From a virus (taxonomy: Duplodnaviria > Heunggongvirae > Uroviricota > Caudoviricetes), in the IMG/VR virus record IMGVR_UViG_2675903253_000013: DNA of 4,347 bases, one strand, 5' to 3'. The notes under the pieces were generated by a model. That model searched no databases. It was not told the DNA's origin and saw nothing but the letters and a program-made list of their open reading frames with translations. Below are positions 1 to 4,347 of this stretch, in pieces; position 1 is the stretch's first letter; each line of letters opens with the position of its first letter. A program made the position numbers and the translations under genes.

Positions 1-563
1 TACTCAACGTCAAACGCCCGAATTGAAGCCAAATCATCCAGACCGCTCAGCTCCTCTTTCATTTCACGCTGACGGCGATAAATCTCATCGTTGCGATCGA
101 CCTGCGCCTGCACCATTGCTGCCGCCAGTTCTTCCAGTTCCGGCATCGACAGTTTCACCTGCTGATTATCGGCATCGCTCCACGCCATATGTGTTTGTGC
201 TGTGACAGATTTTGCCAGCATGACTACCGGGGACAGGCGGCCCAGTGAGTTGGGGCCAGCATTCCAGATACGACCGTTCCATTCAAACGTGAACGGCTTC
301 GCCTCCTGTTCTGTGCGCCATGCTTCAATTTCCTGACGTCTGGCCTCTCTGGCCGCTTCCAGCATTTCTGGTGTCACAGTGAATGGGGCTATCTCACCCC
401 ATTTGCCACTTTGCAGTTCCTGCCAGATTCGCTGACCCGTCGGTGCGACATCATCAGCGGTGGCTGTGTAGGGGACTGCCTGGTCCCTGTCGTCAAAAAA
501 AACGTCACAGTCTACTGCGCCACTTTCGGTATAACGGGGATTAATGATTTTTTTAATTTCCAC
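1..563 (-). CDS. Tail fiber assembly protein / tail-fibre chaperone, second copy, different family from the first (DUF4376-like C-terminal motif); partial, 3' end runs off the window start
   Basis: Minus-strand frame is open from 563 to position 1 with no stop (about 187 codons, not in the ORF track because it lacks an ATG and a stop inside the window). Translation begins VEIKKIINPRYTESGAVDCDVFFDDRDQ and contains FTFEWNGRIWNAGPNSLGRL...WSDADNQQVKLSMPELEELAAAMVQAQVDRNDEIYRRQREMKEEL, which matches my recollection of the phage tail assembly chaperone family. It sits immediately downstream of a tail fibre gene (stop TGA 574..576). Proposed start GTG 561..563, preceded by GAGGAA (570..575) at 6-nt spacing; in-frame ATGs at 615..617 and 621..623 are alternatives but would overlap the upstream gene by about 45 nt. 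Confidence 0.6.
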   Translation of the reverse strand, partial: MEIKKIINPRYTESGAVDCDVFFDDRDQAVPYTATADDVAPTGQRIWQELQSGKWGEIAPFTVTPEMLEAAREARRQEIEAWRTEQEAKPFTFEWNGRIWNAGPNSLGRLSPVVMLAKSVTAQTHMAWSDADNQQVKLSMPELEELAAAMVQAQVDRNDEIYRRQREMKEELSGLDDLASIRAFDVE

Positions 564-569
564 GGTGCA

Positions 570-575
570 TTCCTC
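570..575 (-). promoter_or_regulatory. Shine-Dalgarno (GAGGAA) for the second chaperone gene
   Basis: Minus strand reads TGA GGAATGCACC GTG: GAGGAA lies 6 nt upstream of GTG 561..563 and overlaps the TGA stop of the upstream fibre gene, consistent with translational coupling. Confidence 0.4.
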
Positions 576-1763
576 ACGATGTGCGAATAAAAAGCCCGGG
601 CATTGCGCCAGAGACATGAGCATCCGGCACCCCGGACAGGGCGCTATATGACCCCGGTAATGAATGCTCTGAACATCCCGTAATGAAAAATTGTGGGGAT
701 GCTATATACGTTCCGGTGGGAGTACTGGGCACTGAAATCCCCACCGGTCCCAGTCGTGAGCCTCTGTATGACTGCCCCCTGACAAGTCTGATGACTTTAT
801 CACCGTCAGCTTCTCCCTGGTACGCAGCAATAATCAGCCCGCCAATGTCAGGGTCTCCCCATCTGTTGCAGACAGAGCTCGCCACGATTCTGTAAATAAT
901 ATCTTCTGTGGTTATATTTATTTTCACCCAGCCAGTCAGTCTGGATATGGGCCAGTAGCAGTAGCGGGTGTGATAAATGGGGCCGTTAATGCCGTAAAAA
1001 GTAAGGGATTTGGCTCTGTACCTCGGTTCTGTTGTCTCAGGGCGTGCATCAGTCCACCGGATGCTGAGCACCCCTTCAAACCGTGTGTCGGGTATGATGA
1101 TGTCGTAGGGGCCAGCAACGGAATATTCACCTGGCAGCGCATTCCTTACCCAGGCCAGGAAATCACTCTTAGTGTCAAAACGGATAACATCTTCAGGCAG
1201 AAAAGCACACCCAAAGCCGAATGCGCCGGGTATCGCCAGACGGCCTTTTGTCCGGTCGTAAATGTCGCTCTGTGCTTCCATCGTGGCCGCACTTTTCAGC
1301 CCCAGATTATCCCGGGACTTCTGTTGTGCCTTTTCGCCTGCTGCTGCGATTTCAGACAGATGGTTAGCCGTTTTCAGAGTGCCGGTCAGCGCAGCATCAA
1401 TGTCATTTTTGGCCTGCTCTGCTGCGCCTGCGCCACCATTTCCTCAAAGCGTTTGACGACATCCGGTTTCAGGTCGCCCTCATCAGGAGCAATCAGAAAG
1501 TCATTCAGCGTGCCGGGCTTTGAGTCGTCGTATACAGCAATGTCGCCAACACAGTACTCGTCGCGCCAGTCCCGTTTCAGATACACGCAATATTTTCCGA
1601 CCTGTGCCTCAAACGAATATTCACCGTTATTTCCGGTCACTACATCAGCCCTGGTACGCATCACCACTTCTGAGGTGTTTACACGGGATTTCAGAATAAT
1701 CTGGCATCCGGACATGGGGATGCCTGCGCCATCAGTCAGCGCACCTGATATCACTACAGACAT
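574..1763 (-). pseudogene. Side tail fiber protein (lambda Stf-type N-terminal domain plus distal receptor-binding part), disrupted by a 1-nt frameshift
   Basis: ORF 1386..1763 (125 aa, MSVVISGALTDGAGIPMSGCQIILKSR...DSKPGTLNDFL...VKRFEEMVAQAQ) resembles the N-terminal ~110 aa of lambda Stf (MAVKISGVLKDGTGKPVQNCTIQLKA...DSQPGTLNDFL...LELMVEEVA, from memory). It stops at TGA 1386..1388. A second minus-strand frame is open from 1443 down to the TGA at 574..576 and reads GAAEQAKNDIDAALTGTLKTANHLSEIAAAGEKAQQKSRDNLGLKSAATMEAQSDIY..., continuing into the 235-aa ORF 574..1281. Fibre-like sequence therefore continues across the break in a different frame. The two frames co-exist only in 1389..1443. 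Confidence 0.75.
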
Positions 1764-1786
1764 AGTTTTTCTCGCGATAAATTAAA

Positions 1787-2332
1787 TCAGGAAGAACCTT
1801 CCGGAGAGACGGACCATTCAATGGCGTTATATGAGGATTTATCAGTGATGGTGCTGAAATCCATCGCCTGCAGCGATTTCGCGTAAATACGGTACGCTTT
1901 CAGTTTTTCCCGGTCTTCGTCGCTGATTAGCCCCAGCAGCAGGTCTTCTTCCCATTCCCCTGTCCGGGCACTGACCTGAGCCAGAAGGGCATCACGCTCA
2001 TCTTCCGCTTTGAGTCTGTAGTCAAAGACAAATTCATCATTGCGGTAAAACCAGTAACCCGGCGCGGTAATGCGGCGGTTGGCGGTAATATCAGGAACTT
2101 CAATAACACTGGCGTTACGGGGTTCAATGCCTGTCACATCCTTACCGACCCACACCACGCGCCCGTCTCCGGTGTAAACCATTTTTATGGTGTCACTGGC
2201 AAAGTTCTTCTGTTCTTCATACCAGTTTTTGCCGTCTTCCGAAAAAAGCCAGGTGACATCATACTGTTTTGTCAGCTGATATTATTCCGCGGTTTTCGGA
2301 TTACCTGCCGTAATATTTTTTAAATGCAACAT
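1787..2332 (-). pseudogene. Tail fiber assembly protein (P2 gpG / Mu U family) interrupted by an in-frame TAA at codon 17; the largest intact piece is ORF 1787..2182 (131 aa)
   Basis: Minus-strand ATG at 2330..2332 lies 2 nt after the fibre stop (TAA 2335..2337). It reads MLHLKNITAGNPKTAE, then TAA (2282..2284), then continues in the same frame YQLTKQYDVTWLFSEDGKNWYEEQKNFASDTIKMVYTGDGRVVWVGKDV...EVPDITANRR... to stop TGA 1787..1789. This is collinear with the recalled N-terminus of Mu U / P2 G (M.HLKNIKSxNPKTKEQYQLTKNFDV.WLWSEDGKNWYEE), where the stop position is Gln. CAA to TAA is a single transition. Confidence 0.8.
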
Positions 2333-2334
2333 TG

Positions 2335-3375
2335 TTAAATACTCGCTACGTTATACCAGGTGCCATTAATCAGTTTTTGCAGCGGTCGGTAATACACGCC
2401 GTTGACGTTATCCGCTGAGTTACGGCCGGTATCCGATATCGATATCCCTGACAGCCCGTGTCCCGAAGGTGAGCGAAATGTCCACGAAACGGTGTTACTG
2501 CCGGGGGGGTAATACATTTCATAACCATACCGCACATCCTGCACGCCACCATTTCGCTGCTGGTAACGGGCATCAAAGTTTCCGTAGTCTGACGGTGTTA
2601 CCCGTCCTGTAACGTTTACAGCTTTATTACTCTGGATACTGCCACTCTGAAAACGCAACACATGCACGCTATTGGCATAAACATCCAGCAGGCCATCACC
2701 ATTCTGTTTGAATCCGGTGTCATTATCACCAAGAACAATTGAATTCCCCCCCAGGGCGTTCTGAACGCCGATACCCAGCGCACCATTGACCTGCGAACCA
2801 CCGCCAACAGACACTTTATGCGACATGGATATTTCACCCGTCCGCAGATTAATGGTGAACGGGCGCAGGGGACCAATATCGCCATTTTCCCCCTGACCTT
2901 CACTGGTGGGAATAAGGTGCAGGCACTCTTCCGAACGACGAAAAATCAGGCCAAAAGCTTCGTTGAAAATCCTCAGCGCATTAACACCACGGATTTTCAG
3001 CTCTCCGGTCATGGTGTCGCCATCACGCTGAACGGCATTTTTTGCCTTATCCACCGTGGGTTTTAATCCGAGGTTTTCAACAGCCTCATCCCTGTCTTCC
3101 ACATCCGAAAGGTTATTTTTTATCAGCAATGCCTCTTCGTTAATTGCACCGCCCACCAGCAATAATATAGCCTTATATAGCTGGTCGTGTTCTTCTTTAT
3201 TCAGTTCTATCCCGGCCTTCTCAATGACACCACAGATTTCCTCCTGAATGGCATTCCACATGGCACTGTTCAGCCAGGTAGCAAGACGTCCTGTGCGAAG
3301 ATTTCCGTCAGTAAATCCGTTCTTACCCGGACCAAACTTATCTTTTACCGCAGTCAGCGTATCAATCCTGTGCAT
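2335..3375 (-). CDS. Tail fiber protein (Mu S / P2 gpH-like N-terminal attachment region; P2 gpH / lambda Stf-type C-terminal receptor-binding tip)
   Basis: Complete 350-aa ORF 2335..3387. N-terminus MHRIDTLTAVKDKFGPGKNGFTDGN matches the conserved start of Mu-type tail fibres. Middle and C-terminus (NAVQRDGDTMTGEL..., NALGGNSIVLGDNDTGFKQNGDGLLDVYANS..., ending RPLQKLINGTWYNVASI) match recalled P2 gpH / lambda Stf C-terminal motifs (ALGGSSIVLGDNDTGFKQNGDGILDVYANS... RPIQKYINGTWYNVAQV). I place the start at the third in-frame ATG (3373..3375) because GAGGA (3381..3385) sits 5 nt upstream and the product then begins MHRIDT; ATG 3385..3387 (MRMKMHRIDT) is the longest alternative and has no SD. 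Confidence 0.88.
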   Translation of the reverse strand: MHRIDTLTAVKDKFGPGKNGFTDGNLRTGRLATWLNSAMWNAIQEEICGVIEKAGIELNKEEHDQLYKAILLLVGGAINEEALLIKNNLSDVEDRDEAVENLGLKPTVDKAKNAVQRDGDTMTGELKIRGVNALRIFNEAFGLIFRRSEECLHLIPTSEGQGENGDIGPLRPFTINLRTGEISMSHKVSVGGGSQVNGALGIGVQNALGGNSIVLGDNDTGFKQNGDGLLDVYANSVHVLRFQSGSIQSNKAVNVTGRVTPSDYGNFDARYQQRNGGVQDVRYGYEMYYPPGSNTVSWTFRSPSGHGLSGISISDTGRNSADNVNGVYYRPLQKLINGTWYNVASI

Positions 3376-3952
3376 CTTCATCCTCATCTGGATAGGAAAA
3401 TAAAACGACGGTGTGTGACGGACATAATTTATTAATCACGCACTCCGCAACCGTATCCCCCCACGTCCGGATCGGTGTGTTGCAGGCGTCCGTGCATGTC
3501 TGCCACTGAGCACCGGCATCCATCGGCAACGTCACACGCCAGAAATAACGCCAGCGATCTCCCCATTCCGGATCGGGGCTTGCATCCAAGTGCTGGAACT
3601 GTTCGATCGTTACGCCGGTATATCCCAGCGCCTCAAGCTGATCCAGGAAGAACTGCTCATTTATGCCACCAGCCACATTGGCTTTTGCTTCAAGACGTTG
3701 CTGACGCTGGCGTAATGTCTGGGTTCCGACAGGGGAACAGGAATCAGGTAAACCATACAATTCTTCATAACGTTCAATCAGCTCTGTGGACTGACCGGGA
3801 TCGATTTCAATCACCAGTTCATCAGCCCGCTGGTGAACACGCACAAGCGATGGTGCCAGACCGTCAAGTACACCGTCGGTATCTGACCATGCAGGCCCCG
3901 GCGGCATCAGTCCGTACAGCAGCTTTGTATAATCATCCTGTAACGAATCCAT
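3362..3952 (-). CDS. Baseplate/tail protein of the P2 gpI / Mu gp48 family (DUF2313-like)
   Basis: 196-aa ORF. N-terminal LLYGLMPPGPAW...LDGLAPSL...HQRADEL...IDPGQSTELIERYEELYGLPD.C...TQTLRQRQQRLEAKANVAGGINEQFFLDQLEALGY fits the recalled gp48/gpI family pattern. Position is between a J-like baseplate gene and the tail fibre, as in P2 (J-I-H-G) and Mu (47-48-S-U). Strong SD AAGGAG at 3959..3964, 6 nt upstream of the ATG; start overlaps the upstream stop as TAATG. Confidence 0.8.
   Translation of the reverse strand: MDSLQDDYTKLLYGLMPPGPAWSDTDGVLDGLAPSLVRVHQRADELVIEIDPGQSTELIERYEELYGLPDSCSPVGTQTLRQRQQRLEAKANVAGGINEQFFLDQLEALGYTGVTIEQFQHLDASPDPEWGDRWRYFWRVTLPMDAGAQWQTCTDACNTPIRTWGDTVAECVINKLCPSHTVVLFSYPDEDEDAQD
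3381..3385 (-). promoter_or_regulatory. Shine-Dalgarno (GAGGA) for the tail fiber gene
   Basis: Minus strand reads CAG ATG AGG ATG AAG ATG CAC: GAGGA is 5 nt upstream of ATG 3373..3375 and lies inside the 3' end of the upstream gene. Confidence 0.4.
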
Positions 3953-4347
3953 TATTTACTCCTTGCCGGGTCATAAGCCTGCCAGGTGATCTCGCCGAGC
4001 ACCGGAAGCTCGGTCTCCCCCAGGTCAATATCCGATGAAGGGACGATTAACCGGTGGGCCACTTCACCAGCAGACAAACTGATGGCCTCACTGATTCTGG
4101 ACAGATACATACGCCCCTCTGGCACACCATCCCGTAACATCAGTGCATTCAGCTCTGCTTTTATTGCAGTCCTGATCTGCGGTGTGTCTTTCGATAATGC
4201 AATCGTCATCGGGATGACTTTTTCTGTGGCACCGAATACATACAATCCGCTTCCGGCAACAGGTGCCAGAGGAAGGATGTGGTCCCTGACTGCGTTAATC
4301 ACGCTTTCATCCGGGGCCGGGCGTTCCGGATCGTTTGTCGCCACCAT
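3952..4347 (-). CDS. Baseplate J-like protein (P2 gpJ / Mu gp47 family), C-terminal portion; 5' end lies beyond the window end
   Basis: Minus-strand frame is open from the window edge to stop TAA 3952..3954 (131 codons in window, ending ...LPVLGEITWQAYDPARSK). Assignment rests mainly on synteny, with the stop overlapping the start of the gpI/gp48-like gene, and on general resemblance to J-family C-termini. The ATG at the window edge is probably internal. Confidence 0.65.
   Translation of the reverse strand: MVATNDPERPAPDESVINAVRDHILPLAPVAGSGLYVFGATEKVIPMTIALSKDTPQIRTAIKAELNALMLRDGVPEGRMYLSRISEAISLSAGEVAHRLIVPSSDIDLGETELPVLGEITWQAYDPARSK
3959..3964 (-). promoter_or_regulatory. Shine-Dalgarno (AAGGAG) for the gpI/gp48-like gene
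   Basis: Minus strand reads CCCGGCAAGGAGTAAATAATG: AAGGAG, 6-nt spacer, ATG 3950..3952. Confidence 0.5.

Follow-up and report, generated by a model that had tools for sequence, protein, structure and literature searches.

Among the described systems closest to the DNA considered here, the Stx2e phage phiP27 (NC_003356.1) has the order L52 (baseplate J), L53, L54 (a fibre), L55 (Tfa), a gap of 23 nucleotides (nt), L56 (a second fibre), L57, L58 and attR. Phage Mu obtains the second specificity of its fibre-chaperone pair S-U (gp49-gp50) by Gin inversion, with S' and U' in opposite orientation and sharing the constant part of S. In Ur-lambda, the attachment of the side fibres to the gpV-gpM junction is by a collar made of Stf residues 1-91 (PMC12617516). 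As for the chaperones, Tfa proteins combine a variable fibre-binding N-terminal domain with a conserved C-terminal domain that drives trimerisation (PMC9608196), and DUF4376 proteins encoded downstream of fibre genes were found by experiment to be required chaperones in Alteromonas phage V22 (PMC7289586) and in the Campylobacter CJIE1 prophages (PMC7882524). We examined a stretch of 4,347 nt of viral DNA (IMG/VR record IMGVR_UViG_2675903253_000013), referred to in full as the window, in which two fibre-chaperone pairs, or cassettes, stand in tandem: fibre 1 with chaperone 1, then fibre 2 with chaperone 2. We consider it very likely that the window comes from a defective phiP27-like prophage of Shigella sonnei with a Mu-type contractile tail, where it forms the distal end of the late (tail) operon, and that its tandem of fibres was inherited as such and is now dead.

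Gene order and spacing are identical in the window and in phiP27, including the phage_tail_N domain on L56 and the DUF4376 domain on L57. Directly downstream of gp47 and gp48 homologues, in a co-directional block, lies a Mu S-like fibre gene with a Caudo_TAP chaperone gene (here carrying a nonsense codon), and then, after the same junction of about 23 nt, a phage_tail_N fibre gene with its own start (here frameshifted) and a DUF4376 gene. The proteins are 98% identical to L53, 84% to L54, 76% to L55, 55% to L56 and 68% to L57. The two differ in that the receptor-binding tips and the chaperone N-termini have been exchanged, that ipaH and not attR follows the cassettes, and that the window's copy is pseudogenised, its four fibre and chaperone frames not all being intact (a TAA codon and a 79-nt deletion, to which an IS1 in baseplate J is added). 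An intact copy with the same six-gene order is annotated in E. coli FDAARGOS_944. Of 5,426 complete E. coli genomes, 332 matched in a search with the whole window, and 88 covered at least 80% of a 689-nt probe that extends from the 3' part of tfa1 over the junction and the N-domain of fibre 2. The genes that flank the window encode a sheath, a tube and a Mu-type baseplate. On this comparison of sequences, two unrelated fibre-chaperone pairs in tandem are the normal layout of the phiP27 family, already known as such.

The initial annotation had described the two cassettes and proposed that the second was a lambdoid side-fibre module inserted, as in a mosaic, behind a P2/Mu-type module. While the families, the orientation, the non-invertible layout and the non-functional state that it described have stood up, the mosaic insertion has not. 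We regard a recent, local insertion of a lambdoid Stf and chaperone block behind the Mu/P2-type fibre module of this particular prophage as very unlikely. It is true that the N-domain family of fibre 2 is, among sequenced phages, overwhelmingly one of lambdoid siphoviruses, that only 4 of 311 N-domain records exceed 90% identity to the type found in the window, and that some such transfer must have occurred deep in evolutionary time; a lambdoid origin of the anchor domain at that depth is possible. However, the tandem and its junction at 1764-1786 are kept in phiP27 and in many E. coli prophages, the N-domain of fibre 2 is only about 46% identical to lambdoid Stf N-domains, and its partner chaperone is a DUF4376 protein, not a lambda-type Tfa. 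Nor is there a compositional break between the cassettes of the kind that a foreign second cassette had led one to look for: GC content is 0.49-0.54 and GC content at third codon positions 0.50-0.58 across all genes, with no step at the junction.

Both cassettes also occur, at 84% nucleotide identity, in PP818812.1 ("Actinobacillus phage vB_Apl-pPE4", 42568-45919), where the N-domain of fibre 2 has 92% amino acid identity; the recorded host, Actinobacillus pleuropneumoniae, is unexpected.

The assignment of the four proteins to families is for the most part straightforward (E values in Table 1 unless given here). Fibre 1 is covered over its full length by phrog_6859 (E 5.5e-209) and matches the Mu "Tail fiber protein S" of PDB 5yvq_A, most closely at the C-terminal tip. 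Chaperone 1, read from an intact relative, matches "Tail fiber assembly protein U" (5yvq_B) and belongs to the Pfam family Caudo_TAP (PF02413). The N-terminus of fibre 2 is a phage_tail_N domain (PF08400, "Prophage tail fibre N-terminal"; E 5.6e-63 on an intact relative), and residues 1-92 can be aligned with a 94-residue chain of PDB 9e7m named "Tail fiber protein" (E 4.4e-17). We take this chain to be the lambda Stf N-domain, as it would fit both the identity of about 46% to lambdoid Stf proteins and the Ur-lambda structure paper (PMC12617516). A weaker match (E 9e-7) connects residues 1-198 of fibre 2 with gp40, the collar spike of phage XM1 (7kjk). Chaperone 2 matches DUF4376 and no other Pfam family, and a search of NCBIfam returned no family for any of the four proteins. 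These matches agree with the families first proposed (Mu S, Mu U, Stf-type and a different chaperone family), apart from the additional label "P2 H-type" for fibre 1. The N-terminal domain of P2 H-type fibres is Pfam DUF3751, so named in PMC7882524; the Pfam scan (E <= 0.01) gave no such domain on fibre 1, its one result there being a sub-threshold match to gp37_trimer, and so did not confirm that label, the P2 H sequence itself not having been compared directly.

Simple duplication of one cassette was considered as a source of the tandem and rejected: BLASTP found no significant similarity between the two fibres (E > 1), nor between the two chaperones (E > 1), so that the word "heterologous", by which the cassettes had been described, is correct. 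The profile phrog_11571 matches the N-terminal part of chaperone 1 (profile positions 19-103) as well as the C-terminal part of the DUF4376 protein (profile positions 83-218), from which it appears that natural hybrids, with a Tfa-type N-domain and a DUF4376 C-domain, exist.

How far, then, does the resemblance to lambda go? Fibre 2 has the Stf-type collar domain, about 92 N-terminal residues that align to Stf (the anchor domain lies at roughly 1416-1763). The window belongs to a contractile, Mu-like tail and not to a lambdoid tail of the non-contractile siphovirus type. The lambda Stf partner, Tfa, is in Caudo_TAP (the Pfam description names lambda), which is the family of chaperone 1, whereas the gene just downstream of fibre 2 encodes only a DUF4376 protein. 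The C-terminal part of fibre 2 is unrelated to lambda Stf and T4 gp37, neither of which it matched in the Pfam or PDB searches.

The resemblance to Mu is one of clear homology, of fibre 1 to S and of chaperone 1 to U, and both lie downstream of gp47/gp48-like baseplate genes. It raises the question of whether the tandem could be a decayed invertible host-range segment of the Gin/Cin/Pin type, with its invertase and inverted repeats outside the window or lost. We find this hardly credible. The second specificity, in contrast to that of Mu, is a complete and separately anchored fibre, in the same orientation and without an invertase: each fibre has its own start codon and N-terminal domain, all the genes are co-directional, and there is in the window no oppositely oriented fibre C-terminal segment lacking an N-terminus of its own, as fibre 2 starts at its own ATG and runs in the same direction. 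No recombinase gene lies between cassette 2 and the bio operon in the source contig, and no inverted fibre segment either, which answers the question of what lies beyond position 1 of the window; phiP27, likewise without an adjoining invertase gene, ends with L58 and attR. The inverted repeats of the window are short (14-27 nt) and imperfect (73-89% complementary), and they do not bracket a cassette. No paired inverted crossover sites of about 26 bp flank the segment; of AAACCNNGGTTT-type sites there is only a degenerate one, inside fibre 1, and none in L031, a paralogous ipaH-island prophage of E. coli O121. The initial annotation had already set the locus apart from invertible segments by its layout, and these searches bear it out.

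Two observations could be quoted in favour of an invertible past. One is a pinE pseudogene about 3.3 kb past the DUF4376 gene at that E. coli O121 locus. The other is that fibre 1 retains, at its NLGL motif, the 10-nt Mu gix core AAAACCTCGG. Overall, however, only about 16 of the 26 gix positions are kept there (by hand count), so that this is not a credible crossover site, and a scan of the window, its contig and relatives found no site within 9 mismatches of the 26-position gix sequence.

The pinE pseudogene (L031:3173-3727, NZ_CP119441.1) is a site-specific DNA recombinase gene with an internal stop; it follows ipaHb and IS1 and shares the strand of the fibre genes. The locus, which is not that of the window, gave no hix- or gix-like core. 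A "Resolvase" match downstream of ipaH in another sequence (L014) was also looked at and set aside, being a 132-amino-acid (aa) N-terminal fragment of a serine recombinase that is not at the window's locus.

The NLGL motif itself occurs in both of the otherwise unrelated fibres, between the conserved and the variable part, and fibre 2 keeps none of the gix core in its DNA. In Mu S it is the gix crossover site that encodes this motif. The motif of fibre 1 is found upstream of the point (about window position 2750) where similarity to the fibre of the DUF2612-type prophages begins, and in fibre 2 it lies just before identity to L56 of phiP27 falls (residues ~211 onward).

We now turn to the state of the genes. 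Codon 17 of chaperone 1 is TAA (window 2282-2284) in place of the CAA of relatives. In Shigella genomes, gene callers give this protein as 162 aa, matching a start at the CTG of codon 20; this shortened product is probably impaired, judging from the lost N-terminus, which is highly conserved with Mu U. Fibre 2 is short of 79 nt at 1415|1416 by comparison with every relative examined, and its frame is shifted; what is left are open reading frames (ORFs) of 125 aa (1386-1763) and 235 aa (574-1281), against 421-422 aa encoded in intact relatives. In both parental types of this sequence (see below) the missing 79 nt are bounded by perfect 12-nt direct repeats, GCTCTGCTGCGC, of which one copy is left, and in sequence terms this is the signature of slippage or of a microhomology deletion. 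The frames of fibre 1 and of the DUF4376 gene are intact. That each cassette has one broken partner had been noted from the start, with the doubt that a dual-fibre system could work; both points hold, and the system cannot work here.

The true start of the DUF4376 gene is probably not the annotated ATG but a GTG at position 563 behind GAGGA, which gives a protein of 187 aa, as in L57 of phiP27 and most E. coli homologues. Homologues range from 187 to 193 aa, and in the AlphaFold2 model residues 1-19 have a predicted local distance difference test score below 50.

The window is 100% identical to positions 165-4511 of a 40.7-kb contig (L011, assembly GCA_001250555.1), and the surroundings in this contig are informative. 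The contig begins with the end of an IS1 (nucleotides 1-62), followed by 108 nt of baseplate J sequence, so that the insertion splits baseplate J about 100 nt past the right end of the window. Complete S. sonnei genomes, among them Ss046 (CP000038), have this gene split by the same IS1. With baseplate J interrupted, no tail can form, irrespective of the fibre genes. Past cassette 2 come a 59-aa ORF, an oppositely oriented ipaH gene (L011:4512-6455 with the 59-aa ORF; 587 aa, LRR_TTSS and NEL domains), then ybhB and the bio operon. The unit made of the fibre 2 remnant, the DUF4376 gene, the 59-aa ORF and the oppositely oriented ipaH recurs at several chromosomal sites in Shigella genomes, and genes for effectors at a prophage's end, after the tail fibre genes, are the common pattern (PMC3530523). 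The window belongs among these ipaH-island remnants and does not differ from the others in any material respect.

By its sequence, the window combines two paralogous prophage copies. Over 1416-4347 it is 100% identical to a P27-like prophage adjacent to smpB in a complete genome; S. sonnei Ss046 (CP000038) carries the same prophage, with an identical fibre 1 protein. Over 1-1415 it matches ipaH-island copies near purL/mltF at 100% identity, as it does copies near mlrA over 1-1274. Both copy types are identical over 776-1550, and for this reason the point of exchange can be placed no more precisely than that. The location next to ipaH, ybhB and the bio operon suggests gene conversion or chromosomal rearrangement between prophage copies.

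What the module does in its intact relatives can be approached through the pattern of conservation. Fibre 1 is 93-100% identical to L54 over residues 1-210 and only 36-40% over residues 271-330; fibre 2 is 83-93% identical to L56 over residues 1-120; and the C-terminal parts of both fibres diverge from those of phiP27 to 10-43%. Both chaperones differ from those of phiP27 in the N-terminal part, while their C-terminal part is conserved. The chaperone N-termini thus vary with the fibre tips, which fits the modular model of Tfa. Chaperone 2 resembles the DUF4376 chaperones of V22 (gp27) and CJIE1 in the same way, as a protein of about 190 aa with a variable N-terminus and a conserved C-terminus made of DUF4376, encoded directly downstream of a fibre gene. 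We infer that it folds the fibre encoded upstream of it, fibre 2, with the co-variation of its N-terminus and the fibre tip relative to phiP27 as indirect support.

As for expression, the minus strand carries all the substantial reading frames and neighbouring genes are tightly packed or overlapping. A search of both strands of the window (1-4347) for sigma-70-type promoter-like sites gave none, against 4.4 +/- 1.9 expected from shuffles, which is consistent with an internal stretch of one late operon; there is accordingly no promoter-like site between the cassettes, and the only terminator candidate found between them is a weak 5-bp stem at 1802-1790. Terminator-like sites in the window number 8, for a shuffled expectation of 4.5 +/- 1.9, an excess that is not clear.

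We therefore propose the following for intact relatives, as a model. Both fibre-chaperone pairs would be transcribed together. In each fibre a conserved anchor would form the N-terminus and an exchangeable tip that binds the receptor the C-terminus, and each downstream chaperone, with a variable part matching the tip of its own fibre and a conserved C-terminal part, would fold or trimerise that fibre. The virion would then carry two receptor-binding fibres at once, instead of alternating between them by inversion as Mu does. In the window this module is dead, owing to the nonsense codon, the 79-nt deletion and the IS1 just outside, and its DNA is probably retained only within a prophage remnant bearing the type III effector gene ipaH.

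Some points weigh against this interpretation and should be acknowledged. The source of the window is a draft assembly; we note that a 12-nt repeat is too short to have caused an assembler join and that the same broken fibre 2 ORF is found on three contigs from at least two different assemblies. That the remnant persists because of ipaH is our inference only. To our knowledge, the Stf-type anchor is documented on the tube/tip junction of the siphovirus lambda and, for a distant relative, on the neck of the myovirus XM1, and not on a Mu-type tail.

This last point bears on the attachment of fibre 2, which may be at the neck, at the baseplate or collar, or on fibre 1 as a branch. A neck or collar fibre docked on head-completion or terminator proteins, like XM1 gp40, is a possibility that we hold only tentatively. 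The match of residues 1-198 to gp40 speaks for it, the N-terminal domain of gp40 being bound to the XM1 neck as six trimers (PMC10457771), as does the consideration that the tube-tip junction used by lambda Stf would, on a contractile tail, presumably be buried under the sheath and baseplate. Yet the match to the lambda Stf N-domain is much stronger (E 4e-17), and a tblastn comparison detected no neck proteins shared between P27 and the second lineage in which the cassettes are found.

This second lineage is represented by a prophage of E. coli RMDEC364 (L032/L033), which shares window positions 30-2751, from the interior of fibre 1 to the DUF4376 gene, at 96% nucleotide identity, and has a different baseplate (baseplate J and DUF2612) and an E217-like sheath. 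We considered whether this lineage was itself XM1-like and rejected the idea, as its sheath matches that of the Pseudomonas phage E217 type instead; its neck terminator has no sequence match in the PDB. When all the structural proteins of phiP27 were compared with this prophage by tblastn, the only ones with a counterpart were fibre 1 (from residue 83), Tfa, the full-length fibre 2 and the DUF4376 protein. The same anchor domain thus serves two tails that have no other detectable protein in common.

One might explain this movement of a whole block between unrelated tails by supposing that fibre 2 docks on the co-transferred fibre 1 or on chaperone 1 and forms a branched fibre. Both the 96% identity of the block across a change of baseplate and sheath type and the restriction of the shared proteins to these four are what it would lead one to expect. 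We nevertheless think it quite unlikely: there is no known precedent for phage_tail_N binding another fibre, lambda and XM1 using ring-forming tail or neck proteins for this purpose; lambdoid phages use phage_tail_N without any Mu S-like fibre; and folds may persist without sequence similarity, so that a common docking surface may exist unseen. A broader formulation, in which the fibre 1 shaft and tip, Tfa, fibre 2 and the DUF4376 protein make up a self-contained, portable two-fibre unit whose anchor docks either on fibre 1/Tfa or on some generic feature of contractile tails, and not on a tail protein specific to one lineage, is in our opinion also unlikely. Were it true, it would represent a new mode of attachment for the Stf collar domain.

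The window itself is of little import, being a pseudogenised copy of an arrangement present in the phiP27 record and common in prophages of E. coli and Shigella. Its practical value is one of annotation: two broken genes, an IS1 and an adjacent ipaH mark a non-inducible "ipaH island" and not a working host-range device. The wider question, that of how an Stf-type anchor is attached to a contractile tail and of dual display on P27-type virions, is of interest for the engineering of host range in phages and tailocins.

The coordinates of the features are collected in Table 1. The presence of the two cassettes in tandem and in the same orientation, as first described, is confirmed: all four genes are found at the positions originally given for them, on the minus strand. 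Transcription would proceed from baseplate J through gp48/YmfQ, fibre 1, chaperone 1, the 23-nt spacer and fibre 2 to the DUF4376 gene, the stop codon of which spans window position 1.

Table 1. Features of the window, with positions counted from its first nucleotide
Feature	Position	Strand	Evidence
Baseplate J / Mu gp47-like gene, C-terminal fragment, 131-aa ORF	3952..4347	-	Pfam Baseplate_J, E 3.5e-8
Mu gp48 / YmfQ-family baseplate wedge protein, 196 aa, intact	3362..3952	-	Pfam Phage_Mu_Gp48, E 2.3e-25
Fibre 1, Mu S-type tail fibre, 346 aa, intact	2335..3375	-	PDB 5yvq_A, E 4.2e-25; phrog_6859
Chaperone 1, Mu U-type (Caudo_TAP), pseudogene	1787..2332	-	5yvq_B, E 9e-39; PF02413, E 1.3e-25
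Spacer of 23 nt between cassette 1 and cassette 2	1764..1786	-	Sequence; spacing equal to phiP27 L55-L56
Fibre 2, pseudogene, own ATG at 1763	574..1763	-	Pfam phage_tail_N; PDB 9e7m; frame analysis
Deletion joint 1415|1416, 79 nt gone	1404..1427	.	Comparison with relatives
Chaperone 2, DUF4376 protein, frame intact, 207 aa from annotated ATG	3..623	-	Pfam DUF4376, E 1.1e-16
NLGL motif of fibre 1	3064..3075	-	10-nt Mu gix core AAAACCTCGG kept in DNA
NLGL motif of fibre 2	1297..1308	-	No gix/hix core resemblance in DNA

Finally, paralogous ipaH islands (L001:2869-3045 and L013:13488-13757) contain part of another tail fibre assembly gene of the Caudo_TAP family, a C-terminal fragment situated past ipaH and a SAM-methyltransferase gene and on the same strand as the fibre genes, which may be left over from an additional fibre cassette or from a different prophage.

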